DNA from: an uncultured Candidatus Saccharibacteria bacterium
Lineage (GTDB): Bacteria; Patescibacteriota; Minisyncoccia; Phycocordibacterales; UBA918
Direction: 5' to 3'
DNA length: 64,000 nt
Assembly: GCA_964626635.1 (NCBI GenBank)
Contig: CAZVFY010000003.1
Location: 7,449 to 71,448 of the forward strand
Of the stretch, positions 17,171 through 53,833 are shown piece by piece. Below the pieces are notes generated by a model that did no database searches, was not told where the DNA came from, and saw nothing but the letters and a program-made list of their open reading frames with translations. How positions within the stretch are numbered: position 1 is the first letter of the stretch; the number at the start of each line of letters is the position of its first letter. Position numbers and translations under genes: made by a program.

Positions 17171-17174
17171 ACCG

Positions 17175-38104: not shown

Positions 38105-38254
38105 ATGCCAAAACGAACCTATCAACCAAAAAAGCGTAAGCGAGCTAAAACGCATGGATTTCTCGTGCGTACCGCCACGCCGAGTGGCCGCAAGATCGTC
38201 CAAGCCCGCCGCCGCAAGGGCCGCCACCAGCTGACAGTCAAAAAAGCGCGCTAG
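38105..38254 (+). CDS. rpmH: 50S ribosomal protein L34
   Basis: [49 protein letters not shown]. Missed by the ORF track because it is under 60 aa. Followed by a terminator-like palindrome. Confidence 0.85.
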
Positions 38255-38329
38255 CGCTTTTTTCGTAGTAATCGTGCTCACAATGGTGCGTGACGATCCA
38301 TTGCTGGGTACTATATTAAATTAATAGGT

Positions 38330-38665
38330 ATGTTCAAAAAGTCACACCGATTAACTCGCTCTGCGTTCACTACCACCTTCCAGCAGGGTAAACGGTTCCA
38401 CTTCCCTACCCACACCATCATTATTGCTCCCCACGACACCCTTGCTGTGGCGGTAGTGACAAGTAAAAAGGTGGCGCGTTTGGCGGTATTGCGCAACCGT
38501 CTACGACGAAGAGCGTACGCCGCTATGTGTAACGCTGTGCTGCCGCCGGCGCAGTACATTGTGCTACTTAAACCTACGTTTGCGGCCCTCTCGCGTCGTC
38601 AGCAGCAAGCTACTATCAGTGACTCACTTGCCCGAACCATAAAACCCAGTACACTGACCCCATGA
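38330..38665 (+). CDS. rnpA: RNase P protein component
   Basis: RLTRSAFTTTF and VVTSKKVARLAVLRNRLRRR (RNR motif). Follows rpmH. Confidence 0.8.
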   Translation: MFKKSHRLTRSAFTTTFQQGKRFHFPTHTIIIAPHDTLAVAVVTSKKVARLAVLRNRLRRRAYAAMCNAVLPPAQYIVLLKPTFAALSRRQQQATISDSLARTIKPSTLTP

Positions 38666-39405
38666 GTTTTATTTGGCACACGTTTTTCTACGATCCGGTC
38701 TATAACGCCCTGGTATTTTTTATTAATGTATTCCCTGACGGCGATATCGGTCTAGCGATCATCGCGACAGTGGTGCTGGTCAAGATGATCTTGCTGCCTT
38801 TATCAATCAAGGCCGCCAAAACGCAGCGGATCATGCGCGAGATCGAGCCGCGCCTCAAGGCATTAAAAGAAGAGTTCAAAGACGACCGCCAACGCCAAGC
38901 AGCGGAAATGATGACAATCTATAAAGAAGCGGGGATGAATCCGTTCGCGAGCTTTTTGGTAATTCTTCTCCAATTACCAATCTTTATTGCGCTCTATTTT
39001 GCAGTCTCTAGTTTGGTCGACGTAGCCGAAGATGGTTTGATCAGTATCAATTTTGATCCAGATATCTTGTATACGTTTGTCGAGGTACCGGCTGAGGCGA
39101 CTACCCTATTACTTGGAGTGTTTGACGTTGCGTCGCGTAGCTTGCCACTCGCGATCCTGGCTGGAGCGACGATGTTTTTGCAGATGAAACTGACGCTACC
39201 GGTACTCCCGCCCAAGGAAGCTGGCGCCAAGCCAGATTTCAAGGACGATTTTATGCGCAACATGCAAGTGCAGATGAAGTACGTAATGCCGGTAGTGATC
39301 ACGGTGATCGCGTACCTATTCCCGACCGCTATCATCTCGCTCTACTTTGCGGTTAGCAATATCACTGCGATCGCGCAGGAGTACTGGGTGAGAAGACATC
39401 GGTAA
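38662..39405 (+). CDS. yidC: Membrane protein insertase YidC (short Gram-positive-type)
   Basis: KAAKTQRIMREIEPRLKALKEEFKDDRQRQAAEMMTIYKEAGMNPF conserved region. 5 TM. Confidence 0.8.
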   Translation: MSFIWHTFFYDPVYNALVFFINVFPDGDIGLAIIATVVLVKMILLPLSIKAAKTQRIMREIEPRLKALKEEFKDDRQRQAAEMMTIYKEAGMNPFASFLVILLQLPIFIALYFAVSSLVDVAEDGLISINFDPDILYTFVEVPAEATTLLLGVFDVASRSLPLAILAGATMFLQMKLTLPVLPPKEAGAKPDFKDDFMRNMQVQMKYVMPVVITVIAYLFPTAIISLYFAVSNITAIAQEYWVRRHR

Positions 39406-39410: not shown

Positions 39411-40337
39411 CTATGATCCATCTACACACGTCGCATAGCCGCTTTGTGGATCGTACACTAGTTCAATAGCGGAATTTTCATTTGCTTGCGCGTACGCACT
39501 ACATATGCCCTCTAACTGAGATTCAAACCCATCAGGATAGCCATTAGCTGCTGACGGTACACCATCAGGCAATGGAGTTTTCACTGCAAAAATTATCCCT
39601 TCTTCAGTAACAGCGAGATCTTCTTGAATTTGGACTAATACGTTTTCTTCAACTTCATAAGGGTTAATGTATATAGGGTATCTATTTAATACGGAATTGA
39701 TGACATTAGAATTTACGTTTCCATCACCATTAATTAAGTTTTCTTCTACTATATCTAATGCAGCATTATCCCTTTCAAAACAGCGTATCTCATTACTGCC
39801 GGTAGAAGGTCTTTGAATTATATTACCGTTTAGTGCACAGTCTCTTGAGTAGGCTAATTGATCTTGGTTTGAAGCTGTTCCAGGTATGTATGAATAACCG
39901 TCTTCCTGAATAACAATAGCTTCAAAAGCTCTGACATTCTCCCTCACCACCGGTCCCAAATTCCTAGTCTGTTCAATATTTAACTCAAACCGTGTTAAAT
40001 CAGGATTGATCACCGTCAGGATCAAAACGGCGGACAGCACCAGCACCAGACCAAACACTGCCCCTTTGATGTCTTTCTTAGCATCTCCCTTGTCGGTGGC
40101 GATGTCGGTGAACATATATTTAACACCGGCAATGATGATTTTGATCACCGCCAGTAGCGCCGCCAGGCTGATAGCCAGACCATACACGGCATTGATGTAG
40201 GTATTGAAATCCGCATTCCCTTCTAGTCCCGGGATCCCGACCAGCGGCGTAAAGGTCTGTGCCCAGGCTAGGCCTGGTAGTAGCCAGACAGCGAGGACTG
40301 CGAGCGCAAAGGTTAGATGGTGGTGTCGAATTGCCAT
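39411..40337 (-). CDS. Membrane/secreted protein with an N-terminal VirB2/TrbC-pilin-like segment (signal peptide plus two hydrophobic helices) and a C-terminal extension
   Basis: MAIRHHHLTFALAVLAVWLLPGLAWA, then LAISLAALLAVIKIIIAGVKYMF ... AVFGLVLVLSAVLILTVI. Last gene of the T4SS-like operon. Confidence 0.4.
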   Translation of the reverse strand: MAIRHHHLTFALAVLAVWLLPGLAWAQTFTPLVGIPGLEGNADFNTYINAVYGLAISLAALLAVIKIIIAGVKYMFTDIATDKGDAKKDIKGAVFGLVLVLSAVLILTVINPDLTRFELNIEQTRNLGPVVRENVRAFEAIVIQEDGYSYIPGTASNQDQLAYSRDCALNGNIIQRPSTGSNEIRCFERDNAALDIVEENLINGDGNVNSNVINSVLNRYPIYINPYEVEENVLVQIQEDLAVTEEGIIFAVKTPLPDGVPSAANGYPDGFESQLEGICSAYAQANENSAIELVYDPQSGYATCVDGS

Positions 40338-41491
40338 AACGTGTTGTCTGATTTGTTGATAAAGTGTAGCACCTCGCCGGACTCCGTCAGCGTCGGGCGA
40401 ACGACATCGATCCTCTGCCCCGCTACATCAGACAGGTTGGACAGTAAACTGGCCGAGCCAAACTGCGCGTTCACTTCCCACAACGCATCCGTCGTCTGTA
40501 GCGCACCGCGATACCATGGGTCCGGCATAGCGCCGGGGTAAGACTCGAAACTGCCACCACACAGCGCATTCACGCTGCCGCGGACAAAGGTGCACTTTTC
40601 AGGAATAAACGAGAGTGGTGCGAGGGTGTTTTGGTCCGTCTCGGGGTCGTACAGATTGGTGGTGTACAACCGGTCAACGATGCTGCTGCTCAGTACCGCC
40701 AGTTCGTTACCAACCGCCGAGAATCCGTATCCAGATACAGGCAGTCGATCCCCGGCTCCGTCGGTGTACATGTACAGCATGCCTTCTAGTCGGCTGTTAG
40801 CTCGGGGATAGACATAATGCGGTCCGGCAGTAGATTCGTGCCAGTCAATGGTGATATCGCGAAGTGGTACAGAAAAGGCGGTACGGGTGGTGTTTTCCGC
40901 TGGATTGAACACTCGCACGATAGTCTCACCGGCATTAGCTACGGCATACATAAACTCGTTCTCGTCGGTAACGGTAAAATCAAAGATTGGATCTGTCAGC
41001 GCAAAGTTGACCAGTGATTCTGTGTTCGGAGTGATGGTGCCCATGATGTACTCGGTTTCGCCATTCCTGATTGCTTTTAACATGATGTATCCCCCATTAG
41101 GAGTAATAGCCGCACGCTGCACGAATGGAATGGTGGTGCCAGATAGACGGGTCCGCTCGCCACTGCTGGTATTGATGGAGAACACATGACCGGTTCCAGC
41201 TTGAGCGTAATATATTTGGCCGGTAGTGCTGGTACCGATACGAATACTTTGGAAACCAGCAACAGGATCGGTCGTTAGCTGTTGGAGGGCGATGGTATCA
41301 CTGATAGCAACTATTGGCTCGGTTACACCAGTTGGCACCGTTGCCCCTACGTTTGGATCTGTCACATCCGTCCCGAATTGTGGCTCATTAGGCACTGTAG
41401 GACTACTATGAGTTATCAATAAGTACGTCCACAAACCAATCAATAGCAGTACAATTAGTAATCCAACAATAATTAGCAATGATCGTTTCAT
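40313..41491 (-). CDS. Secreted beta-propeller-like protein (392 aa)
   Basis: N-terminal anchor/signal and repeated beta-strand-rich segments. Confidence 0.45.
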   Translation of the reverse strand: MKRSLLIIVGLLIVLLLIGLWTYLLITHSSPTVPNEPQFGTDVTDPNVGATVPTGVTEPIVAISDTIALQQLTTDPVAGFQSIRIGTSTTGQIYYAQAGTGHVFSINTSSGERTRLSGTTIPFVQRAAITPNGGYIMLKAIRNGETEYIMGTITPNTESLVNFALTDPIFDFTVTDENEFMYAVANAGETIVRVFNPAENTTRTAFSVPLRDITIDWHESTAGPHYVYPRANSRLEGMLYMYTDGAGDRLPVSGYGFSAVGNELAVLSSSIVDRLYTTNLYDPETDQNTLAPLSFIPEKCTFVRGSVNALCGGSFESYPGAMPDPWYRGALQTTDALWEVNAQFGSASLLSNLSDVAGQRIDVVRPTLTESGEVLHFINKSDNTLWQFDTTI

Positions 41492-41493
41492 AT

Positions 41494-42507
41494 TTAAAAG
41501 CGGAGAATCAATTGTTCCTCGTCACCCTGGAGTACCTGTTGTAATGACCGGACATGAAAACCAAGCGACACACGACGCTGTCCCGCTGGCTGGCGCAGGG
41601 TGATTAGGTAGGGGTTTTGGGTGTTGTTGCTGGTGGTCTGACTGTTGATTTGCCATTCTGATACATCGGGGTTGTTGTAGACGCGAATATCGAGATTAAA
41701 TGGCTCGGCTCGTACAGTCATTGTGTTACCAATCACCGTTTGCTCGGGGCGTAATGGTGTTTGTTGGAGGCCGTAAAGCGAGTGTTGCTCGTAAAATAGT
41801 AGCTCTGGTTCACCAATCTCGACCATTTTACCCGCTTTGCCGACCACAACACCGTTTAGGGTGCTAACGGTTACTGTCACCGCTACTCGACCACCACGTG
41901 GCGTGAGAAAGGACGTTTTATGTCTGCCACGAACTGCTCCACCTTCTAGCACTTGCTGGCCGACACGCCATTCGTACACGTGAGTAGCGGGATCAATAAA
42001 TGAACCATCGTTCACTATTGCGGTCACATTGACAACACTACTAAAACTAGGCAGTCCTCGTCCGGCGTACCAGTCAGGGACACGAGTTTGCGGTTCGACG
42101 ACAATATCGGTATAAGTCGGTATAAAAGACGCCGTGAGCGTCTGCTCTGTGCCGCTACCACGAGTGAGGGTGGCGGTGAGAGTTTGTGGCGTACCAACTG
42201 TTCCAGCCACAACCTCTATCTGTCTACGATTGGTGGCTGTTTCTATCAACACACCGTCGAGTCGCCAGGTTACTTGTGGCCCGGTTATGCCACTCGAGTA
42301 ATCATTTAAGGTCGCTGTCACTACAGTGCCGGGTGTAGGCCTAATCTGATCGAGTACGATCTCGTCAGCGATACCTAGTCCTAAGCTATCCGTTGCAAAT
42401 TGTCCTTGCGCGACCTCCGGCGTGAGCCAGGTGATCAGTCCGGCTATAATTCCCCACACCACCAGCAATACACCTTTTGATAGACTGCGAACAAATATTG
42501 TGCCCAT
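41494..42507 (-). CDS. Secreted protein (337 aa, Ig-like/Thr-rich)
   Basis: Signal peptide. In the operon. Confidence 0.45.
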   Translation of the reverse strand: MGTIFVRSLSKGVLLVVWGIIAGLITWLTPEVAQGQFATDSLGLGIADEIVLDQIRPTPGTVVTATLNDYSSGITGPQVTWRLDGVLIETATNRRQIEVVAGTVGTPQTLTATLTRGSGTEQTLTASFIPTYTDIVVEPQTRVPDWYAGRGLPSFSSVVNVTAIVNDGSFIDPATHVYEWRVGQQVLEGGAVRGRHKTSFLTPRGGRVAVTVTVSTLNGVVVGKAGKMVEIGEPELLFYEQHSLYGLQQTPLRPEQTVIGNTMTVRAEPFNLDIRVYNNPDVSEWQINSQTTSNNTQNPYLITLRQPAGQRRVSLGFHVRSLQQVLQGDEEQLILRF

Positions 42508-42564
42508 ATAGTATTACTAATAGTAACAGAGCGTTCTATCTGGATTTGGGCTCGCTGTGCGTAT

Positions 42565-44352
42565 CTACTGGGCCGATAGTTCGGCTCGCGCTTCACGAAT
42601 CTTCATCAGCTGTCCTGGATCAGTGGTAATGATTTGGTCTTCAGTGTAACTGGCAATGATTTTGATGGCCACATGCTTGAGACCCACGAAGAAGATACCT
42701 TCCCCTACTCCCGATTCGAGTAATAAGTATTTCTCCTCATCAGTTAGATTGAAAGTCTTTTGAATATTATCAATTGCCGTAGGCGATTGCTTCATCAATA
42801 GTTGCATGCTGGAGTTGGTGATCATCGGTACTCCGTATGGGCTACGTAAAAAGTCGTCCACGTCCTGCGTGATGGTCGCAATGCCGAGGTAGTATTTGCG
42901 GCCACGCTTGGCGAGGGAGAACAAAAACGAGGCCGTATCTTCGCTTTTCATCATCCACCACGCCTCGTCGATTACCATCAGGCGCTTTTTCAGATTGCGT
43001 CGGATGCTGCCCCAGATAAAGTGAGTGACGATGTACATGGCGATAGTCTTGAGCTCATCCTCCATGTCGCGCAGCGAGAACACCACAAATTTTTGATTGA
43101 TATCAACATTCGTGGATTTATTCATGAATCCGGCCCAAGTGCCCGAGGTGTACTTTTGAATGCGTGAAATGAGCGATTGTGAGCCTTCCATTCCAGCTAA
43201 CACCATTTCAAAATCAGATAGTAGCGGCGGTTCCATACCAGTAAAATCAACCTCACCGGTAATGTCTTTGAGGGCGTAGGTTTCTTGGAGGGCGAGATCG
43301 ACCAATGTCTCTTCTTCTGGTGTCAAGCCGCCGAGCATTAGTCTAAATAGTCCGATCATCTCGATGATGTGGGTGCGTAGCACGTCGCGCGGGTCCTCAT
43401 CACTGGCTGGCGGCGGTAAATCAAACGGATTGACGTGGTGGTTACTAGAAAGCGAAATATTAAAGAACCGACCACCGGTCGCTTCGGCCAAATACTCATA
43501 CTCACGTTCGGGGTCGAGCACGATTACTTCGGTGCCGAACATAAGTGAGCGCAAAATTTCTAACTTAAGGCCATAGGACTTACCGGCCCCGGAGGTAGCG
43601 AATGTGACCGAGTTATAGTTCGTCAGTGAATACCGGTCAAACAATATGAGCGACGAATTGTGGCGATTGATCCCGTACAAAATCCCGGTGTCAGAGGTTA
43701 GGTCAAATGAAGTGAATGGGAAGAAGCTCGATAACGGTGACGAGTTAAATTTGCTGTGCACCTGCAGGATATCATCATTGAGCGGAAAGACGCTTTTGAT
43801 ACCCTGTTCCTGCTGGAAGAGCGCCGGCTTCATACTGACTAACTTGGCATCCAAAATCCCCCGCAGATCATTCTCAACTTTATTGATTTCGCTTTCATTT
43901 TCACCGTACAGCGAGACGTAAAAGCCGACATTAAATAACTTTTCCTCGGCTTGTTGGAGTTTGTCACGCAAATCCTCTAGATTACGGTACGAGGCTTCTA
44001 GTTGCGGATCGCGGACTTCACCTCGTTCGGCCTTGGTCATAATCTGGCTTTGCACCTCGGCAACTTTCTTCTGGAATTTTTTGAGGGTTTCAGCGGTGTC
44101 AATCGGGTGAATGAAAATAGACACATCTAGTTCTTTGGCCAAGTTCAGTACCGGTTCGATCCAGCCGTCGCTCAGGTAACGAGGGTATGCCACCGCGTAG
44201 TACGTGCGGGCGTTAACGCCCGAGATATTAATACTGCGCGGTTTGATCTTGATCGCGGCCGGAGAGATCACATCAGTCAGTGTCAAGAGCTGCCCCGCCA
44301 AGGCCTCAGTAGTAGTGTCGGCGCTCGGACGCAAGAAATCAAATGTACTCAT
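42565..44352 (-). CDS. VirB4/TrbE/CagE-family type IV secretion ATPase (short form)
   Basis: Walker A FATSGAGKSY, Walker B RLMVIDEAWWMM, C-terminal ATPase fold. 595 aa. Confidence 0.8.
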   Translation of the reverse strand: MSTFDFLRPSADTTTEALAGQLLTLTDVISPAAIKIKPRSINISGVNARTYYAVAYPRYLSDGWIEPVLNLAKELDVSIFIHPIDTAETLKKFQKKVAEVQSQIMTKAERGEVRDPQLEASYRNLEDLRDKLQQAEEKLFNVGFYVSLYGENESEINKVENDLRGILDAKLVSMKPALFQQEQGIKSVFPLNDDILQVHSKFNSSPLSSFFPFTSFDLTSDTGILYGINRHNSSLILFDRYSLTNYNSVTFATSGAGKSYGLKLEILRSLMFGTEVIVLDPEREYEYLAEATGGRFFNISLSSNHHVNPFDLPPPASDEDPRDVLRTHIIEMIGLFRLMLGGLTPEEETLVDLALQETYALKDITGEVDFTGMEPPLLSDFEMVLAGMEGSQSLISRIQKYTSGTWAGFMNKSTNVDINQKFVVFSLRDMEDELKTIAMYIVTHFIWGSIRRNLKKRLMVIDEAWWMMKSEDTASFLFSLAKRGRKYYLGIATITQDVDDFLRSPYGVPMITNSSMQLLMKQSPTAIDNIQKTFNLTDEEKYLLLESGVGEGIFFVGLKHVAIKIIASYTEDQIITTDPGQLMKIREARAELSAQ

Positions 44353-44375
44353 ATTGATCTAGTATACACCCCGCA

Positions 44376-45011
44376 CTACGATTGTGTTGCCGGTGCCGTA
44401 CCGGTGGTATCAGCTGGGTTATATAAATGGTAGAAGAGCTCTACTAACTCGTCGCGCCCGAGCGGCATGGTGCGGACCCCGACACTAGCCAGTCCCTGAG
44501 TCACGAGTGACGCGCGTTGTTCCAGTTGCAGTCGGTGTTCTTCAAACTGTTGGTCATCGGTATTCACAGCTGTCTTGGAGCCGCTGAATATGTTGGTGAA
44601 TTTATTGGCGACGTTTAGTTTAGTCGGTGAGTACGGCACTACAATAAAAAAGCTTTTACTCATAACATCAGTATCATTAGTAAAGCTTCTAATAAATTCG
44701 ATGTATTCCGCGAGCTGCACGCGCATCAAATCGTTATTTTGTTTACCTTGTAGATTATCTAATACTTCGAGATACGGCTCGATGTTTAACTTGCGGGACT
44801 GGACACAGATCTGTAAAGAGAAATCAAGCGTGTTCAAGAAATTTTGAAACTGCAGCAAAATTGCGCGCTGCTCATCGTAGGATTTGAGCGCAAAGTTAAT
44901 TGAAGACGCCAAGATCACCAGACACATCTCGCCATTTTTCTTAATTATCACCCCGTCTCGAATGTTTTTGATCGGGACAAAGTTCTGCGTACTGGTTGCG
45001 GTGGTGGCCAT
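44376..45011 (-). CDS. Hypothetical cytoplasmic protein of the T4SS-like operon (211 aa)
   Basis: Intact ORF. No motif. Confidence 0.45.
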   Translation of the reverse strand: MATTATSTQNFVPIKNIRDGVIIKKNGEMCLVILASSINFALKSYDEQRAILLQFQNFLNTLDFSLQICVQSRKLNIEPYLEVLDNLQGKQNNDLMRVQLAEYIEFIRSFTNDTDVMSKSFFIVVPYSPTKLNVANKFTNIFSGSKTAVNTDDQQFEEHRLQLEQRASLVTQGLASVGVRTMPLGRDELVELFYHLYNPADTTGTAPATQS

Positions 45012-45022
45012 AGTGCTGCGGA

Positions 45023-45460
45023 TTAGTCTTTTTGAAGAGCTTTTAATTCGAGATCTCTCGTCAGTGAGGTGATACTTTTATGAGTGTTGCCCCGGTTTTG
45101 TGAGTTCACAAGCGGGTTGCTATTTGCTCTATTAGAACTAGTCGTATCGCGATAGACAATCCCCTCTTTTTGCCGCCAGAGATACAGCCGACTGCTTGTA
45201 AAATAGGTCCAAATGGCCTCGAGAAAATACGAGAATGGCCGGTTATTGATTGGATAAAACGACAATGCTCCCACCAGTAGCAGCACCGGGATACTCAGTA
45301 GCACGGCTAGGAATAAGTCAAAGACAATAAACATGATGACGAAGAACCCGATCCCGCCACCGAGGTACACTGCCTGACGCCAGGTGAAGGGGCCGAAAAT
45401 TTTATCTTCGATATCAATGAACTGTGGTACCGCAAAACGCATACGTTCGTAGTATATCAT
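45023..45460 (-). CDS. PrgI/VirB3-like small membrane protein
   Basis: 145 aa with a hydrophobic hairpin FFVIMFIVFDLFLAVLLSIPVLLLVGALSF. Adjacent to VirB4, as in Gram-positive T4SS. Confidence 0.45.
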   Translation of the reverse strand: MIYYERMRFAVPQFIDIEDKIFGPFTWRQAVYLGGGIGFFVIMFIVFDLFLAVLLSIPVLLLVGALSFYPINNRPFSYFLEAIWTYFTSSRLYLWRQKEGIVYRDTTSSNRANSNPLVNSQNRGNTHKSITSLTRDLELKALQKD

Positions 45461-45489
45461 CCACGCGTGCAGCTGTGGCAGGGTAATTA

Positions 45490-45993
45490 TTACACGCGGG
45501 GGTTGCCCTCGCCCGAGCCGGATTGCCGACTACCGAGCAGGTCCGCCTGCGGGATACTGGCGTGGGTGTTCGGGTCTGCTGCCGCGGCGTGGTCTCGTGC
45601 GCGCCCGGCGTCACCGGCCATGGTGCGGATGGGTTGCAGCTGCGCAAGAGCTTGTTCCATTTCGGCAATTTCAGCGGCGGTGCTGGTGGCGGTGTGACTC
45701 GCAGGTTGATGTAATGGTTGCAAGAAATCAGCTACCTCAGCAGTGATCGTCAACGCCTCTGCATGTGTGATACCTAGTCTCTCGACTAACAGTTCTAGTA
45801 GTTTATCCTGTGGGACGAGACCGAGGATGACGTCGCCAACGGCGACGGCAAATTCTGTAATCTTATCATTTATTAAACCATTCTTTGCACCTAGATCAGT
45901 AAGTTTTAAACTGGTTTCCGAAGAGTCGTACATCTCTCTTGCAACCCCGGTTAATTGCTCATAAGTATTAATCCTTTGTTCGAAATTAATCAT
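45490..45993 (-). CDS. Hypothetical protein (167 aa)
   Basis: Intact ORF in the operon. Confidence 0.4.
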   Translation of the reverse strand: MINFEQRINTYEQLTGVAREMYDSSETSLKLTDLGAKNGLINDKITEFAVAVGDVILGLVPQDKLLELLVERLGITHAEALTITAEVADFLQPLHQPASHTATSTAAEIAEMEQALAQLQPIRTMAGDAGRARDHAAAADPNTHASIPQADLLGSRQSGSGEGNPRV

Positions 45994-45996
45994 ACG

Positions 45997-48525
45997 TTAG
46001 AGATAGAAGTCTTCCTTACCTTTGTTTGAACCGAGATATGTGATTGTGGACAAAGATACCCCACCAGCAACTCCAAGAGACAGTAGTTTTCTAGCTAACT
46101 CTCGGCGTTGTTGTTCATTTATATCTGACTTACCATCATTAGCCTTTTTTGCCAGAGCTTTAAGAACGTCGGCTGTAAGGTATGGGATGCTGTTACTGTG
46201 TATGGTATTGGTATTGGTGTCGACAAACGCTTCGTATGGTAATGAAGCAATGTCAACTGCCTTACGAGCTTTGCTTTTAGGAGTTGCTCGCCTGGCACCA
46301 TTAATCCATTTTGTTTCAGTGCCAGTAAACATCGCTTTTCGAGTTGGTGCTTGAGCAGCTCGCCTCTTCTGTTCGTCTCCACGCGCTTTTTGGAAAGTGT
46401 CTTTTTGCCGCTGTGTAAACGCATCACTTTTCTTAAAGTCCTCAACTTGAGAATCTGTAAAGCCATGCGCAAAATCTTTAGCGAACTCGTCACCGAGTAT
46501 TTCGATCTGTTGCTTCGTCAGTTTTGCAAACTCATCATTAATGACACGGCCGTTTTCGTCGAGTACGCTACTTTTAATAATATCTTCGTATTCTTTTCCA
46601 AGAGCTTTTTTATCAGCCTCATTGACGTTATCACTTTCAAGCAATTTAGAAACCGTTGGAGCTTTAAGGTAGCGTAGTACTTTCAGTCGATCGTCGTTAG
46701 ACATCTCTTCCAGCTCTTTTAATGAAATGCGATTCGCTGCTTTTTCAGCCGCATCAAGCTTCTGTCGATCGTCTGCAGACATGTTTTCTTGTACCAAGCT
46801 AATATCTTTCGCCGCTTCAATATCACTGTTTCCTGTAGTTTTACGAGCAATCGTAGCAAAATTTTTGTCCTGCTCCGCTACACGCTTACGCTTTTGTTCA
46901 ATGGTTTCAGAGCCTGCAACTGAAGCACTCTCCATTTTTTTGTATGCTGGTGTAAACGTCTTATCCATACCCCGAGCAACTTTTGCGCGCCAACCACCCT
47001 TCTGTGCTTGGAGTGCCATTCTGCGCTGGAAATTTTTTCTGCCTTGTTCAGCCTCTGCACCAAGGGCTTGCGCACCGTATCCAGCCGTGTTTCTAGCCGC
47101 GAATTTACCAGTTCGCATGGCTGCATTACTGGCCATACGTCTCCCTCCTCGCGCCAACCGCTGTCCCGTGCGCATCGCCAGTTTTGATCCATCAGCACTC
47201 AGGTACCCAGCCACCATGACCGACATAATGAGGAACACGGCCGACAGCGCGAATGGTCCGATTCCGGCTGCAATATCCCCCGCAGTGTTGGCTAAACCAG
47301 TTGTGTTGGTGGTAGCACCAGGCATGGCGTCGCCAATAGTTAAAGAATTCTGACCAACAGTAGCCACGATCACCGCCGACGAGAGGTAAATCATGATCAT
47401 GTAGGCGGGTGCAAAGAACGCGCGCCCCAGGAAATTCCGCCAGTATTTTTCCATTGTGCCCCTAAAATTGGGCAGTATCCAGCCAATGAACATCAGCGGT
47501 GAAAACACCATAAACACGCATAGCGCTGCGTATCGGATCAGCAACATGATGGCCCCAGCCATAAACGCAAATATGGCTATGACATACACAATGGCGTTTC
47601 CAAAAATGTAGCCCCACGGTAATACACCGCCCCTGGTCAGGTTACCGTCGGCCGCGAGCGATGTAGTGAGCCTCATGTTATTAAAGAAGGTCTGACCCAC
47701 CAGAATTTCTCCTTCGCGATCCGGAGTAATTGTCGCCTGCGCTGCCCCGGCATTAGGAAAGCCGGCTTGACCAATCTCGGTTGCCAGTAAGTTAGTAAAA
47801 TCAACGATGGCCTTGGAGATAAACAAACTAAAGTTGATTAATAGTGCCGCCATTACAAGGTATGCGAGCGCTTTCTGCGCCCCACCTTCATCGCGCCGTA
47901 AGATCATCTTGAAACCAATGTAGATAATAGCGAAAATAAAGAGAATATTGAACAAGTCGCGCACCAATGCCCATAGCGTATCAATGGCGGAACCAACCCC
48001 ACTGCTGTCAACACTGCTGCCAAATCCAATAACAAAGTCCTTGATGACATAATCTAAAAAGCCAGCTGCCCACCCCGCGAACCAACCGAGGAAACTCATA
48101 ACAATGAAATAAATTTTACCCTCGAGGCTGTCGTAATCAGACCAGCTGCGTACTTCTACCTGGGGGTTCCGGGCATCGTTCCCTGTACCGGCAGCTCTAG
48201 TGACACCGGCCGGAGCACCGGGAGGTGTGACCACGCCCGGGCTCACACTGTTTCCGGTCGGCGTGGTAGGGGTAGTGGGGACGGGACTAAGGTTGTTAAC
48301 CGCCGCATCAAAACTCGGCAGTCCGTTCGATCCAGTCGGAATAGGAGGTGGTGTAACCGCCGCATCAAAACTCGGCAGTCCGTTCGAGCCAGTTGGGAGA
48401 GAGGGTGTATCATTTGTCTGGGCTTTTGCCGCAGCGGGCGGTATCAGGAAAATACTGATGATGGCTAGGCACCAAACCCAAAATCGCAGCGCGGGTGTAA
48501 GAGTAAGATATATAGAGTGTTTCAT
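45997..48525 (-). CDS. TrbL/VirB6-like polytopic membrane protein with an N-terminal repeat region and a long charged C-terminal tail
   Basis: 842 aa. Central cluster of at least 6 TM helices. N-terminal tandem TGSNGLPSFDAAV repeats. C-terminal Lys/Glu-rich domain. Confidence 0.55.
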   Translation of the reverse strand: MKHSIYLTLTPALRFWVWCLAIISIFLIPPAAAKAQTNDTPSLPTGSNGLPSFDAAVTPPPIPTGSNGLPSFDAAVNNLSPVPTTPTTPTGNSVSPGVVTPPGAPAGVTRAAGTGNDARNPQVEVRSWSDYDSLEGKIYFIVMSFLGWFAGWAAGFLDYVIKDFVIGFGSSVDSSGVGSAIDTLWALVRDLFNILFIFAIIYIGFKMILRRDEGGAQKALAYLVMAALLINFSLFISKAIVDFTNLLATEIGQAGFPNAGAAQATITPDREGEILVGQTFFNNMRLTTSLAADGNLTRGGVLPWGYIFGNAIVYVIAIFAFMAGAIMLLIRYAALCVFMVFSPLMFIGWILPNFRGTMEKYWRNFLGRAFFAPAYMIMIYLSSAVIVATVGQNSLTIGDAMPGATTNTTGLANTAGDIAAGIGPFALSAVFLIMSVMVAGYLSADGSKLAMRTGQRLARGGRRMASNAAMRTGKFAARNTAGYGAQALGAEAEQGRKNFQRRMALQAQKGGWRAKVARGMDKTFTPAYKKMESASVAGSETIEQKRKRVAEQDKNFATIARKTTGNSDIEAAKDISLVQENMSADDRQKLDAAEKAANRISLKELEEMSNDDRLKVLRYLKAPTVSKLLESDNVNEADKKALGKEYEDIIKSSVLDENGRVINDEFAKLTKQQIEILGDEFAKDFAHGFTDSQVEDFKKSDAFTQRQKDTFQKARGDEQKRRAAQAPTRKAMFTGTETKWINGARRATPKSKARKAVDIASLPYEAFVDTNTNTIHSNSIPYLTADVLKALAKKANDGKSDINEQQRRELARKLLSLGVAGGVSLSTITYLGSNKGKEDFYL
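48298..48411. repeat. Two tandem copies of a 57-bp unit inside the VirB6-like gene (encodes PTGSNGLPSFDAAV)
   Basis: AACCGCCGCATCAAAACTCGGCAGTCCGTTCGA(T/G)CC occurs at 48298 and 48355. Confidence 0.7.
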
Positions 48526-48537
48526 ATAATATCTACT

Positions 48538-50073
48538 CTAGTTGCGGCTGTCATTTGCTGGTCTCAATGGTGGCGGTACGTTCGGTCCAGCTTCGAGAGT
48601 AGTGGTGGTGGCCTGCTCCCTATAAGGGTCAATACTATTTGTTAACCGCAAAGGTGTAGCACCGAGCGCGGTCGCCGGCACTACGATGCCAAGGTCATCA
48701 GCGGTGCGCGTCCAGTTTTCGATTCGCGAGTCGGCCTGAGACTTGGTTTGAGAACTAAGATTAGAATATTCGATTAGCACTTCAATTTGTTCGCTTTCGT
48801 CTGGGGTTTGATACCGTATTTCTAATACCTCTAGTTCAGTAATCAACAATCGGCTGTCGGCCAATCGCCTCTCGATGTCAGCGAGTGCAGTTTGGGCTCG
48901 ATTTCGGTTTGTAGAATTAGTACTGTTGGCAATGAACAATACATAGCCAGTCCGCAGTGCCTCGGCCCGGGCAACAAAATCACGCTCAATTTCTAGCGAC
49001 CGACTGATAATATTGTCAGTGTCAGTGCCACTGACTGTCGCTCTACCAGAATCATTATATAAGTCGTCAAGAAACGAGCTAGAACCGCCTGAACGCCCTC
49101 CCCCCGGATCAGATAGGCCGAGTAATCCTGATACGCCTGAGAGTGCTTTGTTTGCTAACTGCGCCAATAAGGCTGAGATCAGCTCATTTACTTCATCAGC
49201 CTCTACTAACGTATCTTGCCCAGCACCCAGCGCCTTATTGATCTGGGCAGCAATAACCTGACCTGGTTTTACGATCGAGCAGTTTTTAGTGCCGGTCACG
49301 CCTTGTAGGGGTTCGCACACTCGCTGCGAGAGGAAACCACCACCGAACTTGAGGAGGTCGACTTCCTGTCCCTGGGCATTGATGATCCGGGCTCTCGCCT
49401 GTCCTTCGGCGGTGAGGACGGCACCGTACGGTGTATAGGTTTGCGGCGTGGCGGTGATTGTGAGCCAGTCACGGATACCGCCGCTCGTGTCTACACCATC
49501 AATGAAGCCCTGGATATTGCTGACAATACCCGATAAGCGACACGCTGGCGCCGACCCCCCTGCTCGCCCACGCTGATACTGGGTTTCAATGGCAATCTGC
49601 ACATCTAGTTTGAAGGGCGAACAAATAAACGAACCAATGCCACTGTCACCACCAATCTGGCTAATCAAATTGCCAATTTCCTGATCGGCAATATCAGTTA
49701 AAAAACCAGTAAAATCTTGTATAAATGCTGGTCTACCCTGAAACCCTGAGTTGACCCAGTTGATCAGACTGCGAATCATACCGGACATAATACGCTTGGC
49801 AATTGCCCACCCTAGGCCGTCGAGTACATTATCATTTAACCATGAACCAGCAGTACTAACTGCGGTTATTGTATTTTGTGCCAAGTTTGAACCCAGGAGC
49901 GTATTGTTCGCCAACTGCGTGAATTCCGTCGCGCCAGCCCCTAGACCACCCCCCGCCTGTACAGGCTGGACATTATTGCTCGGTAATTGTGGGGTGTAGG
50001 TAGCAACGAACCCAACCACCACAAGTAATCCTAATACAACTGCTTTTTTTAAGAATAGAAAGAATACAGTCAT
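48538..50073 (-). CDS. Secreted/anchored protein of the T4SS-like operon (511 aa)
   Basis: N-terminal TM/signal. Gly-rich. No motif. Confidence 0.5.
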   Translation of the reverse strand: MTVFFLFLKKAVVLGLLVVVGFVATYTPQLPSNNVQPVQAGGGLGAGATEFTQLANNTLLGSNLAQNTITAVSTAGSWLNDNVLDGLGWAIAKRIMSGMIRSLINWVNSGFQGRPAFIQDFTGFLTDIADQEIGNLISQIGGDSGIGSFICSPFKLDVQIAIETQYQRGRAGGSAPACRLSGIVSNIQGFIDGVDTSGGIRDWLTITATPQTYTPYGAVLTAEGQARARIINAQGQEVDLLKFGGGFLSQRVCEPLQGVTGTKNCSIVKPGQVIAAQINKALGAGQDTLVEADEVNELISALLAQLANKALSGVSGLLGLSDPGGGRSGGSSSFLDDLYNDSGRATVSGTDTDNIISRSLEIERDFVARAEALRTGYVLFIANSTNSTNRNRAQTALADIERRLADSRLLITELEVLEIRYQTPDESEQIEVLIEYSNLSSQTKSQADSRIENWTRTADDLGIVVPATALGATPLRLTNSIDPYREQATTTTLEAGPNVPPPLRPANDSRN

Positions 50074-50076
50074 GCG

Positions 50077-50970
50077 CTAAGAAGTAAATTGTGGACTAAA
50101 TATCGCAAACAATACCGCAGGGTCGTCGTTGGTCACTAGTGACGAGTATGGCAGTAAGGCTCGATACATATTTTGTAGAGCGTATTGTAACCCCAGGGCG
50201 TCGTCTTCATAACGTTTGAGGCGCATGAGCGCAAAGGCGGGGTCTTCAAGCGTGATAGCCATCGCCTCAACGTCTTTATGTAAGGCGTGGTACGTATTGA
50301 TCAGGTCTAAATGCTCTTTTACGAATGTGCGCGGGACCGGTGTCTGTAACATATCGTCGCGCATACCAGCGTAAGCGGCCGAAATCAGTTGTAATTCAGC
50401 AATTCCTTGGGGATCTTCGGTTTGTAGTGCATCGTACAAGATAAATAATTCTCCTTGCTCGAGAACGACGTTGTTGTTTGTGATGGCTAAAGCTGCGGTG
50501 TTGGCATAATTGACAATATCTTCATTTTCCCAATCATCCATGATCTCTAGTTGACGGGCACTATAGAGTTTGTGAGCAGTTTCTGCAGCCAGTACGTCTA
50601 CGGTATCAGACACGAGTTCGTCGGTACTGCGGCCGAATGTACCTTGGGTTTTGGTGAGGAGATACGATTCAATAAAGTTCTCGCCAAGGCGCCCGGTCAA
50701 GGTGGTTGGTGGCACGTATGGTTCGGTGGATTCAGGTGCAGGCACAAGAATTTCTGCGTTATCGACAAACTCATCTCGCCAATCTTCGATACCGTTATTG
50801 TCCGTGTCTACTACTACAATTGCCTCACGAACCGGCACTGCAGATTGCGACACGATTGCCGTTTGGCGTTCTGGCATATAGCCAAAATTACGCATAACAA
50901 AAGCACCTGCCACCAACGCCACACCCACCAAGATAGAACCGATTATTCGGGGATGTAGATAACCTGCCAT
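50077..50970 (-). CDS. N-terminally anchored protein, possibly VirB8-like (297 aa)
   Basis: Single N-terminal TM followed by a ~250-aa extracytoplasmic domain. First gene of the cluster after rsmA. Confidence 0.4.
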   Translation of the reverse strand: MAGYLHPRIIGSILVGVALVAGAFVMRNFGYMPERQTAIVSQSAVPVREAIVVVDTDNNGIEDWRDEFVDNAEILVPAPESTEPYVPPTTLTGRLGENFIESYLLTKTQGTFGRSTDELVSDTVDVLAAETAHKLYSARQLEIMDDWENEDIVNYANTAALAITNNNVVLEQGELFILYDALQTEDPQGIAELQLISAAYAGMRDDMLQTPVPRTFVKEHLDLINTYHALHKDVEAMAITLEDPAFALMRLKRYEDDALGLQYALQNMYRALLPYSSLVTNDDPAVLFAIFSPQFTS

Positions 50971-51005: not shown

Positions 51006-51824
51006 TTATCCCCTACTGTCGTCTGTGTATAAGTGGTGGAACAAGTGGATAAACTGGGTAAATGGTATATCCTCGGCGCGCACGGTTGGGGATAGCTCTA
51101 ATTTGTGCAGTGTGGACACTAGTACGTCGCGTTCGACTGTCGCGGCGAGGTTGCGCACCAGCTGTTTGCGCTTGCCGGCGAACGCGGTGTGTAGGAAAGA
51201 AAAATACGCGGCTGCAGGCACACCCCGCAAGGCAGCGTTCGAAATAGCGCGGACTGCAATGATGGCCGAATCAACTGCCGGCGGCGGCGTAAAATGTCCC
51301 CGCTTGACAGTGCATATATATGCAGGTTCACCAAACACGCGAATCGCATACGACAAGATCGATCCTTTAGGATCACGAGCAATCCGTTCCGCCACTTCCC
51401 TTTGTGCGAGGAATACTAGATCAGTTGGTTGCACAGCAGTCTCGAGGCACTGCCGAAACAATAGGCCGGACAGGTAGTACGGAATGTTGGCGACCGTTTT
51501 GTAGCTGCCACTTAGGAGGCCGTATGACGCTAAATCCAAATGCCGTGCGTCACCGTGATGAATGGTGAGCTGCCCTCCGTTGACCTCACTCGGAAATGTG
51601 TTTTGGAGAGACGTGATAGCGCGCGCGTCAGTTTCGAGCGCGACGACCCGCGCGCCGCGCTCCAACAACACGCGGGTGAGCGCCCCGGTGCCGGGACCAA
51701 TTTCGAACACAACGTCCCCCGCAGCGACGTTCGCTGCGTCGCACATTTTGTGCGGGATGTGATCGGAGTTAAGGAAGTGTTGGCCGAGGGACTTTTTGTG
51801 TTGAAAACGCTCGCTTTTATTCAT
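51006..51824 (-). CDS. rsmA: 16S rRNA (adenine1518/1519-N6)-dimethyltransferase RsmA/KsgA
   Basis: KKSLGQHFL, VFEIGPGTGALT. Confidence 0.85.
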   Translation of the reverse strand: MNKSERFQHKKSLGQHFLNSDHIPHKMCDAANVAAGDVVFEIGPGTGALTRVLLERGARVVALETDARAITSLQNTFPSEVNGGQLTIHHGDARHLDLASYGLLSGSYKTVANIPYYLSGLLFRQCLETAVQPTDLVFLAQREVAERIARDPKGSILSYAIRVFGEPAYICTVKRGHFTPPPAVDSAIIAVRAISNAALRGVPAAAYFSFLHTAFAGKRKQLVRNLAATVERDVLVSTLHKLELSPTVRAEDIPFTQFIHLFHHLYTDDSRG

Positions 51825-51850: not shown

Positions 51851-53833
51851 TTAGTCAAGATACACTGTCGTTTCGTACCCGCTCGCTTCCCCGCCGCCGT
51901 ATCCACCAGGCTCTGCGGCTTCGACGTACTGGGGCGAGATGTCATTTAGAAATTCTGACGGCAAGTTCACGCGCGATTGCCCGAACACCGTGCGCATATG
52001 CGCGTACGTAAGAAAGATCTTTTTCTCGGCGCGCGTGAGCGCGACGTAAAACAGTCGACGCTCTTCTTCGGTATCGATCCGTCCATCATCGATCCGTTCG
52101 TGCGGGAACAACCCTTGCTCTAGTCCAGTGATAAACACGTACGGGAACTCCAGACCCTTGGCGGCGTGGATCGTCATGAGGCGTACGGCGTTCATCTCCT
52201 CTTTATCTTTCATGGTGTCCTGGTCGCTCTCGAGGGCTGCACTTTCCAGCATGGTTTCGATCGCCTCCTCGGGCGGCAGCGTGTCGTAGCGCGTGGCGAG
52301 TGTCACCAACTCACGCAGGTTTTCGATCCGCTCGAGTGCGTCCTCGGTCCCTTCATCTTTGAGGGTGTCTTCGATGCCGCTGCGCTTCATGATGAATTTG
52401 ATCGTCGCAGACAGTCGCTCGGTCCGGGCCGTTCTGGCTACATCCATCATGATCGCATCAAACTGCCCGACCTTAGCGGCGGCGCCGGCATTGAGGTCGC
52501 CACGTCTCCCCTCGATGACTTTGAGCATCGTGACCTTGCCGATGCCGCGCGCGGGGGTGTTGATGATGCGCACGAGGTCGGCGTTGCTGCCGGGATTGAG
52601 CGATAGTCGCAAGTATGAGAGTACGTCTTTTACTTCTTTTCGTTCAAAGAACTTGGTACCAAGCAGTTGGTACGGGATATCGAACCCGAGGAAGGCTTCT
52701 TCTAGTACGCGCGACTGAAAGTTCGTCCGGTACAACACCGCGATGTCGGTCGGCTCGGCACCCGAGGCGATCAGGTCGCTCGCGGTGAGCGCAATGTATT
52801 CCGCCTCATCGTAGCCAGACATGCCAGCGTACAAGGTGACTTTGTCCCCCTCACGGTTGTTGGTAAAGACGGTTTTGTCGACGCGGTTTTTGTTCTTTTT
52901 AATAATGTCATTACTCGCGCCGATGATGGTCTGGGTCGAGCGGTAGTTCTCTTCAAGGAGGATGGTGTGTGCGTTCGGGAAGTGACGCTCGAACTGCAAG
53001 ACGTTTTTAATATCCGCGCCGCGCCACGAATAGATTGACTGGTCGATGTCCCCGACGACACATATATTATTGTGTCCCCCTGCGAGCAACTCGGCGATAT
53101 GAAACTGGACTTTGTTCGTGTCCTGGTACTCGTCGATGTGAATGTACTGGTAACGAGTCTGTAGAGTTTCACGAACCAGTAGGTTAGAGCGTAACAAGCG
53201 TAATGTCTTGACGAGAAGGTCATCGAAGTCGAGTGCCTGTTCGTTGTGCAGCGCCGTTTCGTATTTGTCCCAGACACTTGCGACCACTTCCTCAAAGTAC
53301 GAAGATGCGGCGTCAGAGTAAGCGAGGCGGTCTACGGCATCACCCTTGGCGCGCGAAACGGCACCGAGGATTTTCTTGGGTTCGAATTCTTTGGGGTTGT
53401 AGCCGGCGTCAGTGACAGCAGTTTTCATGACCCGCAGTTGGTCCGAGCGATCGTAGATCGTAAAGTGGCGACGCAGTCCCGCTGTCTCATGGAACTCACG
53501 CAGTAGTCTCACACCGAGCGAGTGGAATGTCGTAACGACCGGCCAGCCGTCCAGGGTCGCCCGGTGGGTGGGGGGATACTGCTGGGTGAGAGTCGTGGCG
53601 CGTTCTCGCATTTCGGTGGCGGCTTTGTTCGTAAATGTCACCGCGAGGATGTTATGCGGCGCCACACCGGTATGAATCAGGTGGACGATGCGGTGGGTGA
53701 TGACGCGGGTCTTACCCGACCCTGCCCCAGCCAGCACCATCAGCGGCCCGTCGGTGTGTAACACTGCCTGTTGCTGTGGTTCATTAAGACTTTCTAAATA
53801 TGGTGGAACTGATGATGAGGTGGCGTCAGACAT
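51851..53833 (-). CDS. pcrA: UvrD/PcrA-family DNA helicase
   Basis: LNEPQQQAV, Walker A AGAGSGKT, and helicase motifs through to the C-terminus. Start placed at the internal ATG (MSDAT); upstream in-frame sequence lacks homology. Confidence 0.85.
   Translation of the reverse strand: MSDATSSSVPPYLESLNEPQQQAVLHTDGPLMVLAGAGSGKTRVITHRIVHLIHTGVAPHNILAVTFTNKAATEMRERATTLTQQYPPTHRATLDGWPVVTTFHSLGVRLLREFHETAGLRRHFTIYDRSDQLRVMKTAVTDAGYNPKEFEPKKILGAVSRAKGDAVDRLAYSDAASSYFEEVVASVWDKYETALHNEQALDFDDLLVKTLRLLRSNLLVRETLQTRYQYIHIDEYQDTNKVQFHIAELLAGGHNNICVVGDIDQSIYSWRGADIKNVLQFERHFPNAHTILLEENYRSTQTIIGASNDIIKKNKNRVDKTVFTNNREGDKVTLYAGMSGYDEAEYIALTASDLIASGAEPTDIAVLYRTNFQSRVLEEAFLGFDIPYQLLGTKFFERKEVKDVLSYLRLSLNPGSNADLVRIINTPARGIGKVTMLKVIEGRRGDLNAGAAAKVGQFDAIMMDVARTARTERLSATIKFIMKRSGIEDTLKDEGTEDALERIENLRELVTLATRYDTLPPEEAIETMLESAALESDQDTMKDKEEMNAVRLMTIHAAKGLEFPYVFITGLEQGLFPHERIDDGRIDTEEERRLFYVALTRAEKKIFLTYAHMRTVFGQSRVNLPSEFLNDISPQYVEAAEPGGYGGGEASGYETTVYLD

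Follow-up and report, generated by a model that had tools for sequence, protein, structure and literature searches.

Does the ten-gene cluster at positions 39411-50970 of this 64,000-nucleotide stretch (the window), taken from an uncultured bacterium deposited as Candidatus Saccharibacteria, belong to a conjugative element, or does it encode a machine by which the cell reaches its host? An earlier note on this DNA had described the cluster as resembling a type IV secretion system (T4SS) and had preferred a secretion or attachment apparatus to a conjugative element. This preference is supported by the position of the cluster in the core genome, by its co-divergence with the neighbouring genes, by its GC content and by the lack of relaxase, type IV coupling protein (T4CP) and integrase in the window and its contig flanks. 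With a probability of roughly 0.82, the locus is an intact, chromosomal and vertically inherited T4SS of the Patescibacteria clade, derived from monoderm conjugation machinery (the mating-pair-formation class MPF_FATA), which would mediate host contact or serve as a conduit and not perform conjugation.

Position, conservation and inheritance of the cluster

The interval 39411-50970 is filled by exactly ten co-directional open reading frames (ORFs) on the minus strand, with intergenic gaps of -25 to 57 nt. In gene order they are called g1 to g10 and encode proteins of 297, 511, 842, 167, 145, 211, 595, 337, 392 and 308 aa. The ORF map and the flanking genes identified with Pfam bear out the location of a ten-gene cluster between yidC and rsmA-pcrA: rsmA/ksgA and pcrA lie upstream on the same strand and yidC-rnpA-rpmH-dnaA-dnaN downstream, the end of g10 converging on yidC. 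The GC content of the cluster is 0.47-0.52, the same as in the adjoining genes. Families were assigned throughout with Pfam and NCBIfam profiles and their curated cut-offs, and transmembrane (TM) segments were taken from hydropathy.

Relatives of the VirB4 protein (g7) were collected by scanning one genome per species. At least 574 relatives were obtained and the loci of the best 80 of these were compared; with four copies of the window's own locus they make up a set of 84 loci. VirB4 identity across these best 80 of at least 574 relatives ranges from 66 to 87%. Their labels are Paceibacteria, Kaiserbacteria, Nomurabacteria, Parcubacteria or the generic Patescibacteria and "Saccharibacteria", and all informative titles belong to the Candidate Phyla Radiation (CPR). 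The organism-named homologues of the 297- and 511-aa proteins come from the same groups. Judged by these relatives, the genome is Paceibacteria/Kaiserbacteria-like (CPR) and not a member of Saccharimonadia.

The earlier note had proposed conservation across related genomes as a check, and the locus is indeed kept in place: about 80 species-level genomes carry the full set of genes, in the same order, with pcrA-rsmA on one side and yidC-rnpA-dnaA-dnaN on the other. What varies locally is how the last two genes are ordered, whether a second pilin is present (as in a few genomes) and whether an extra gene follows virB4. The median identity to the window protein is 70% for VirB4, 63% for PcrA, 58% for DnaA, 52% for the TrsD-like protein, 47% for PrgI, 43% for both YidC and RsmA, 39% for the pilin domain and 37% for DnaN, while VirB6 and the other four envelope proteins range from 27 to 34%. 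The divergence of the T4SS proteins follows that of the flanking housekeeping genes, with Spearman coefficients of 0.5-0.86. Because its position is fixed and its proteins co-diverge with those of core genes, the locus is best seen as a vertically inherited, strongly constrained core trait and not as an integrative and conjugative element (ICE).

The extra gene lies between virB4 and the Ig-like gene (g8) in at least 17 relatives, the closest ones included (L006 11885-12730; L012 11815-12954), and its product combines a basic, disordered N-terminal half with a C-terminal multi-TM domain. No remnant of this membrane-protein gene was detected by tblastn in the window, where the equivalent site is the 57-nt gap 42508-42564. 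By this comparison, the genome has lost one accessory membrane-protein gene relative to its close relatives.

Absence of conjugation genes from the window and its flanks

No Pfam relaxase, VirD4/TcpA coupling protein, VirB11 or integrase is associated with the cluster in the window or in its contig flanks. The search combined precomputed and fresh Pfam results for every sizeable ORF of the window and for about 7 kb to its left and 5 kb to its right, these flanks being read on Joint Genome Institute (JGI) metagenome contigs identical to the window. The statement of the earlier note that the cluster contains no relaxase, coupling protein or VirB11 is therefore confirmed across the window. A relaxase and T4CP just outside, which the note had named as the finding that would turn the cluster into an ordinary ICE, were not found in the flanking DNA of about 7 kb and 5 kb.

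The cluster has no VirB11/T2SSE ATPase in or near it. The sole T2SSE (PF00437) protein of the window (26622-28448, E=5e-109) is an ATPase of the PilB type, which has 608 aa and includes an MshEN domain; it lies 11 kb off and is neighboured by tsaE, polA and ruvB, in agreement with the lone PilB previously noted away from the cluster.

No VirB1-like hydrolase is encoded within the operon. A protein of LysM-LysM-Peptidase_M23 architecture is encoded at 61789-62793 on the plus strand, 11 kb from the T4SS. From its domain composition it is the nearest candidate for the cell-wall opening, VirB1-like, that is missing from the operon.

At positions 1-10000 of the window the GC content falls to 0.39-0.43, compared with about 0.49, and two ParB_N/N6_N4 methyltransferase genes are found there together with several family-less ORFs. 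Beyond the left end (Ga0450788_111448; L087 14109-21284) lie genes for an Mrr_cat nuclease, an Eco57I-type methylase, a serine recombinase and AbiEii. From its gene content and composition, the low-GC stretch looks like an integrated mobile or defence island. We considered this island as a supplier of the missing conjugation genes and rejected it, no relaxase or T4CP match being present there.

These data bear on the view that the cluster is the mating-pair-formation module of an ordinary or decayed ICE, its relaxase, T4CP and integrase lying elsewhere or having been lost. The VirB4, PrgI, TrsD and pilin families are indeed shared with conjugative elements of Firmicutes and Mycoplasma, g7 passes the cut-off of a family named "conjugal transfer ATPase, CD1110 family", and the low-GC island with its ParB-methylases lies at 1-10 kb, with a restriction-type nuclease, a serine recombinase and AbiEii just past that end of the window. 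Yet about 80 species-level genomes have the cluster at one and the same site, flanked by the same core genes; it co-diverges with its housekeeping neighbours, has a VirB4 better conserved than DnaA, comes with no integrase, relaxase or T4CP in window or flanks and shows no anomalous GC, and the mobile-looking island, itself devoid of relaxase or T4CP matches, is separated from it by more than 29 kb.

Cytoplasmic-membrane core: VirB4, TrsD-like, PrgI and VirB6 proteins

The protein g7 (595 aa, 42565..44352, minus strand) is the ATPase core of a VirB4 of the monoderm, MPF_FATA-like type, in line with the VirB4 ATPase of the earlier note. It passes the cut-off of the NCBIfam VirB4-like conjugal transfer ATPase CD1110 family (E=1e-105, 354.7 bits, cut-off 325) and likewise that of Pfam P-loop_TraG PF19044 (86.9 bits, E=1.5e-24), and its translation retains intact Walker A (SGAGKS) and Walker B (VIDEAW) motifs. 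Among solved structures, 4AG5 (a VirB4 C-domain from the Firmicute Thermoanaerobacter) comes nearest, at E=1.2e-38; TrwK of the Gram-negative plasmid R388 is matched at only 2.4e-4. CedB is matched at E=9e-8 with 31 bits, far under the cut-off of 700. A PADLOC search gave only a generic P-loop match, for VirB4. No hydrophobic segment was found in g7, g6 or g4 by hydropathy.

The CD1110 alignment of g7 spans model residues 174-733 only. The remaining part is supplied by g6 (211 aa, 44376..45011, minus strand), 23 nt upstream of virB4, a TrsD-like protein corresponding to the VirB4 N-terminal domain as a separate polypeptide. It matches NCBIfam VirB4_plasma, the VirB4 of Mycoplasma ICEs (E=4.5e-12, model residues 100-250), CD1110 VirB4 (E=6e-6, model residues 2-129) and TrsD/TraD (E=2.1e-5), and carries a precomputed PF26593 TraC-like match. 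VirB4 is thus split into a TrsD-like protein and an ATPase core, since g6 matches the N-terminal part of the model that is absent from g7. Of the 77 related genomes in which the limits of the TrsD-like gene could be set, nearly all have it as an ORF of its own, about 211 aa long (206-226 aa, with one outlier of 272 aa), and by this distribution the split is ancestral. On the same grounds a frameshift or pseudogene was rejected as its origin.

The PrgI/VirB3-like membrane protein is g5 (145 aa, 45023..45460, minus strand). It matches Pfam PrgI PF12666 (E=6.5e-10, 39.9 bits, cut-off 27), forms a hydrophobic hairpin at residues 28-72 and was found in 79 of the 84 loci. The earlier note was right that such a protein is present, but had assigned it to the 211-aa ORF. 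Likewise, of its two unknown cytoplasmic proteins, only the 167-aa ORF (g4) keeps this description, the 145-aa ORF being PrgI.

The largest protein, g3 (842 aa, 45997..48525, minus strand), is polytopic and of the VirB6/TrbL-like, "extended VirB6" type, with a signal peptide, a Pro-rich repeat, about six TM segments (residues 183-445) and a long charged C-terminal domain. Alone it matches weakly (NCBIfam CD3337/EF1877, E=0.0011; a precomputed TrbL_3 match graded "weak"). Among 29 syntenic orthologues, 9 have a Pfam TrbL/VirB6 match, the best at E=2e-8, and the conserved core comprises residues 138-603. The profile of the family found no meaningful match among PDB sequences. Mainly through these orthologues, the earlier TrbL/VirB6 assignment holds and g3 is accepted as an extended VirB6. 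In the Pro-rich region behind the signal peptide (48200-48420) the peptide PTGSNGLPSFDAAV is present twice. The JGI gene calls start g3 further downstream (745 aa) and include an opposite-strand ORF of 100 aa, which is probably spurious.

A single pilin with a rare appended domain

The last gene, g10 (308 aa, 39411..40337, minus strand), encodes a VirB2/TrbC-type pilin followed by a C-terminal domain. The pilin part, approximately residues 1-120, has a signal peptide and two TM helices and matches T4SS_pilin PF18895 above its cut-off (E=1.6e-9, 38.1 bits, cut-off 26.6), so that the pilin-like membrane protein of the earlier note is well founded. TrbC is matched slightly under the cut-off (E=8e-6) and the NCBIfam Mbov_0395 pilin-like family at E=1.9e-6. 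A scan of the window with the pilin HMM (hidden Markov model) gave no second copy; a single pilin gene is present in 63 of 69 related loci, a few genomes having a second one.

The C-terminal domain of about 190 aa contains cysteines, is predicted to be extracytoplasmic and is hypervariable. Likeness of g10 to its relatives ends at a median residue of 120 over 64 loci, the longest reaching 209 and none the C-terminus, and the divergence of this part holds even where VirB4 is 87% identical. With the C-terminal 193 aa as query, a word-indexed search of 5.8 billion clusters returned only the query itself, and an exhaustive HMMER search of 1.84 billion representatives returned five relatives with 29-40% identity. 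Four of these five are full pilin fusions sharing conserved cysteines; the fifth (P0243, 225 aa) begins inside the pilin domain. By these searches the domain is very rare and fast-evolving.

Envelope and accessory proteins

The 297-, 511-, 337- and 392-aa proteins (g1, g2, g8 and g9) each have a single N-terminal hydrophobic segment, which agrees with their earlier description as anchored (g1) or secreted (g2, g8 and g9). All four are conserved, and none belongs to a known T4SS family.

The first gene, g1 (297 aa, 50077..50970, minus strand), encodes a bitopic protein with an N-terminal TM anchor (hydrophobic segment at residues 5-31) followed by a predicted extracytoplasmic, all-helical bundle. 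It matches no Pfam or NCBIfam family. Its 325 homologues are all annotated "hypothetical", and the few with an organism name belong to Kaiserbacteria, Nomurabacteria or Paceibacteria. An AlphaFold2 model built from 58 homologues (mean predicted local distance difference test score, pLDDT, 85.7) contains helices only and no strands. Foldseek against the PDB gave a best E of 0.46 and no VirB8 or NTF2 structure, and the family profile found nothing among PDB sequences. The NTF2-like alpha+beta extracytoplasmic domain typical of VirB8, PrgL and TraM is accordingly not seen in the model, and the "VirB8-like" description given earlier survives only as bitopic topology. A published survey likewise could not recognise VirB8 in most Patescibacteria (PMC12102498). 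By tblastn g1 was detected at the same position in 40 of 80 related loci, the others ending short there or falling below threshold. On its model and its distribution, g1 is a clade-specific T4SS-associated component that does not have the VirB8 fold.

The second protein, g2 (511 aa, 48538..50073, minus strand), is N-terminally anchored or secreted. Behind its hydrophobic segment (residues 1-31) come a conserved, cysteine-containing domain (approximately residues 59-323), a coiled coil and a variable C-terminus. Invariant in 52 homologues are W106, a GFQGxPAF motif and C151, C178, C253 and C265. Conservation stops at about residue 323, and in some orthologues Ig-like, F5/8-type-C (discoidin) or fn3 surface modules are added. 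No Pfam or NCBIfam family is matched. The earlier note had called for fold prediction of this protein: a model was obtained, but its confidence is low (pLDDT 60.9) and the conserved domain is not resolved in it; residues from about 350 to 470 form a confidently helical region. Foldseek gave insignificant helical matches only, and the profile of the family had no meaningful match among PDB sequences.

Behind virB4, g8 (337 aa, 41494..42507, minus strand) is secreted or anchored and syntenic in 65 of the 84 loci. In Pfam the protein itself has only sub-threshold BiPBP_C and C2-set matches; among 37 orthologues, BiPBP_C is matched in 10 (best E=1.9e-5) and Ig_3 in 2. The family profile found no meaningful match among PDB sequences. 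From the orthologue matches, g8 probably consists of Ig-like beta-sandwich domains.

The next protein, g9 (392 aa, 40313..41491, minus strand), is anchored by an N-terminal hydrophobic segment (residues 1-30) and carries TolB-like beta-propeller repeats. Its family profile matched the TolB sequence 6pnv among PDB sequences at E=1.7e-5 and ten more TolB sequences at E values of 3e-4 or below, the alignments falling on the propeller part in two stretches each. These matches to TolB-like/PD40 propeller blades are in line with the beta-propeller suggested before. C300 and C311 are invariant, and the protein is conserved over its full length in 64 loci.

The 167-aa cytoplasmic accessory protein g4 (45490..45993, minus strand) has no Pfam or NCBIfam match. 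Its conservation is poor: only 16 of the 84 loci gave a match, among them the four copies of the window's own locus.

Comparison with known systems

The closest experimental parallel is the T4SS of Ca. Southlakia epibionticum (SEML1_0006-0019), which transposon sequencing showed to be essential for epibiotic growth in co-culture (Wang et al. 2023, Cell, PMC10633639). This system resembles Gram-positive conjugative systems, has essential pilins and lacks recognisable coupling and relaxase proteins, and its authors propose that it "may instead export proteins" or have another role (PMC10633639). According to a survey by Quinonero-Coronel et al. (2025, Microb Genom, PMC12102498), Patescibacteria VirB4s form a monophyletic clade related to MPF_FATA. 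TrsD accompanies them most often, and genes for PrgI/VirB3, VirB6 and VirB2-like pilins are found close to virB4. VirB8 can seldom be detected and relaxases are almost absent; in Paceibacteria and Microgenomatia the T4SS neighbours are dnaA, dnaN, rnpA, ksgA and rpmH (PMC12102498). A 2025 FEMS review treats the Patescibacteria T4SSs as a distinct novelty among monoderm T4SSs (PMC12857230). A 2026 preprint also finds CPR VirB4 monophyletic; for a cultured Microgenomatia parasite it describes uptake of host RNA and tubes, possibly T4SS pili, that link the parasite to its host (10.64898/2026.06.21.733656).

As far as can be read from sequence, the locus has every testable defining feature of this clade. 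Its VirB4 is of the monoderm type and, by sequence identity, groups with those of CPR (CD1110, 4AG5 and the CPR relatives), a TrsD-like gene adjoins virB4, PrgI/VirB3 and VirB6 genes are close by (VirB6 mostly through its orthologues) and a single VirB2-like pilin gene lies inside the cluster. Neither relaxase nor coupling protein accompanies the cluster in the window and contig flanks, no VirB8 is recognisable, and the chromosomal position near dnaA, dnaN, rnpA, ksgA and rpmH is kept in about 80 genomes. The combination expected of a conjugative T4SS or ICE, namely relaxase, T4CP and integration module at a variable site, was not observed. The Southlakia T4SS is also origin-proximal, judging from its locus tags. 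Differences from it are that one pilin with a long, rare C-terminal domain stands here in place of six divergent pilins (PMC12857230), and that Ig-like and TolB-like propeller genes follow virB4 here, with no peptidase or lysozyme directly downstream. Essentiality is a result for Southlakia only; for the present system it has indirect support in a VirB4 that is more conserved than DnaA.

Among monoderm MPF_FATA systems (Trs of pGO1/pSK41, Prg of pCF10, CD1110 of C. difficile CTn2 and the Mycoplasma ICE), the likeness lies in PrgI and in a VirB4 that passes the CD1110 cut-off. TrsD and VirB4 are split as in pGO1, the pilin resembles the Mycoplasma ICE protein Mbov_0395, and the nearest solved VirB4 structure comes from a Firmicute. 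Unlike the conjugative systems of monoderms, the locus has no relaxase, T4CP, VirB1-type hydrolase, VirB8-fold protein or PrgB-type adhesin, and it has a fixed place in the core genome and is inherited vertically. A further difference is its VirB2-type pilin, a component generally missing from Gram-positive conjugative systems (PMC12102498, PMC12857230, PMC10633639).

Systems that work without relaxase or coupling protein are known elsewhere: ComB of H. pylori takes up DNA, the archaeal Ced system imports DNA and Ptl of Bordetella exports toxin. All three contain a VirB4-type ATPase with VirB2-, VirB3- and VirB6-like parts, as does this locus. ComB and Ptl differ from it in being diderm systems with a VirB7/9/10 outer-membrane core, and the likeness of g7 to CedB is far under threshold (31 bits vs 700).

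Proposed machine and its function

We propose that VirB4, aided by TrsD and docked on the membrane through PrgI and VirB6, would pull the Sec-inserted pilin out of the membrane and energise its polymerisation into a VirB2-type pilus or channel. In Agrobacterium, pilus biogenesis requires VirB4, while the coupling protein VirD4 is dispensable. The four anchored or secreted proteins g1, g2, g8 and g9 would form the wall-spanning and distal parts, standing in for the VirB8, VirB1 and adhesin parts that Gram-positive conjugative systems have. Conservation follows a pattern in which the machine-facing domains are conserved and the distal domains of pilin and g2 are hypervariable. The C-terminal domain of the pilin, which would point outward, and the variable C-terminal modules of g2 may be displayed at the surface and recognise the host cell. 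F-pilin is known to tolerate C-terminal epitope display. The structure would contact or penetrate the host, bringing the ultrasmall cell into intimate contact with it or joining the two by a conduit; we infer the episymbiotic lifestyle from the phylum.

Several points weigh against this proposal. The class of VirB4 is read from a profile match and from the nearest structure, and the VirB6 match of g3 itself is below threshold, its assignment leaning on orthologues. The operon contains neither a VirB8-fold nor a VirB1-like protein, the nearest cell-wall hydrolase (the LysM-M23 protein) is distant, and the composition is slightly reduced by the missing post-virB4 gene of close relatives. A globular appendage of 190 aa on the pilin is a caveat for polymerisation. 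It is also possible that a T4CP or relaxase is encoded elsewhere in the genome, VirD4 homologues being common away from virB4: they occur in 2,918 Patescibacteria genomes but near virB4 in only 148 of 5,713 cases (PMC12102498).

What the host-contact machine would carry is a narrower question, for which import of host nucleic acid or nutrients, effector export and adhesion only have roughly equal, modest probabilities. Import is a tentative possibility: the pilus or channel would take up host nucleic acid or macromolecules in a ComB- or Ced-like manner and feed a cell unable to make nucleotides. Such a role is in keeping with VirB2-, VirB3-, VirB4- and VirB6-type parts without T4CP or relaxase, as in ComB, with the weak, sub-threshold CedB likeness of the ATPase and with an extreme conservation that would suit an essential role in feeding. 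In the Microgenomatia parasite, the uptake of host RNA and the connecting tubes, possibly T4SS pili, point the same way (10.64898/2026.06.21.733656). Southlakia, however, stays viable after loss of comEC-dependent DNA uptake though its T4SS is essential (PMC12857230), which separates the role of the T4SS from classical transformation but not from RNA or nutrient uptake. The operon, moreover, holds no nuclease or nucleic-acid-binding component recognisable with Pfam or NCBIfam.

Export of protein effectors, or toxin delivery into the host cell, with substrates that are T4CP-independent or pass through Sec as in Bordetella Ptl, is rather unlikely. Several operon proteins have Sec-type N-termini, T4CP-less protein-secreting T4SSs exist in Ptl and Brucella VirB (PMC12102498, PMC12857230), and protein export is what Wang et al. 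suggest (PMC10633639). No effector or immunity gene is recognisable in or beside the operon, however, and its secreted proteins show the conservation and synteny of structural parts and not the variability of effectors.

We consider a pure adhesion organelle, a pilus for attachment without transport, about as improbable. The need of pilus biogenesis for VirB4 but not for a T4CP in Agrobacterium would suit it, as would the variable, surface-type C-terminal domains of the pilin and g2. The extended VirB6 and the highly constrained ATPase, on the other hand, suggest a translocation channel, and CPR bacteria already adhere by type IV pili (PMC12102498, PMC12857230), a PilB ATPase being encoded in the window.

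Less probable again is a more specific machine, with a lineage-specific extracellular half (helical anchor, Cys-rich helical, Ig-like and TolB-like propeller proteins) and a single pilin displaying a near-unique, disulfide-bearing host-recognition domain, whose tube would import host RNA or nucleotides. Conjugation or a decayed ICE is very unlikely, and the ICE explanation is already largely refuted by position, co-divergence and gene content.

Neighbouring genes and other features of the window

Upstream of g1, rsmA/ksgA (51006-51824, minus strand; Pfam RrnaAD, E=1.8e-39) follows at a spacing of 35 nt and is syntenic in 49 of the 84 loci, and pcrA/uvrD (51851-54358, minus strand; Pfam UvrD-helicase, E=1.9e-85) at a further 26 nt, syntenic in 40 of 84. 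The longest ORF of pcrA/uvrD has 835 aa, against 660 aa in the JGI gene call. This arrangement is probably housekeeping synteny; pcrA/uvrD-rsmA may possibly share one transcription unit with the T4SS genes. Scans for promoters (20 vs 18.6) and terminators (20 vs 15.8) were at chance level, so operon boundaries rest on spacing only.

On the other side lie yidC (38662-39405, plus strand), rnpA (38330-38665, plus strand), dnaA (36485-38008, minus strand) and dnaN (35066-36160, minus strand), all identified by Pfam matches, and rpmH (about 38.1-38.25 kb, plus strand), taken from the gene calls of the source contig. This origin-proximal core block (35066-39405, yidC to dnaN) is syntenic in 58-63 of 84 loci. 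Three DnaA-box-like 9-mers with one mismatch each fall inside 40 bp at 37959-37997, upstream of the JGI-called dnaA start, and may be part of oriC or of dnaA autoregulation. Over the whole window the count of DnaA boxes is not above chance.

Rfam reported one tRNA and nothing else over the window, and no tandem repeat of note was found within the T4SS locus. At 13898-18581 (minus strand) lie two large adjacent ORFs without Pfam family or annotation, at their longest 1115 and 468 aa, for which the JGI gene calls give 1090 and 420 aa. About 2.5-4 kb past the right end of the window (L085 896-2416), a ComM/YifB-like ATPase of the Mg-chelatase family (Lon_C, ChlI, Mg_chelatase_C) is encoded; the ComM/YifB family is linked to natural transformation in other bacteria.

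Significance

Systems of this kind were published between 2023 and 2025, and the locus is an ordinary Paceibacteria member. The candidate host-interaction machine of the earlier note fits the evidence, and the same interpretation has been published for homologous systems (PMC10633639, PMC12102498); it is right but not new. The new details are that the 297-aa protein has no VirB8 fold in its model, that TolB-like and Ig-like accessory proteins belong to the locus, that a single pilin carries a very rare appended domain, that VirB4 is better conserved than DnaA and that one accessory gene has been lost.

CPR/Patescibacteria make up a large share of bacterial diversity and their dependence on hosts is poorly understood; in the only genetically tractable species, few machines have been shown to be essential, and the T4SS is among them. 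The locus offers a clean Paceibacteria example of such a core, vertically inherited machine, with a corrected component list in which VirB4 is split and the VirB8 fold is lacking. Its four conserved, unannotated envelope proteins and the pilin with its rapidly evolving appended domain are candidates for studies of host specificity.

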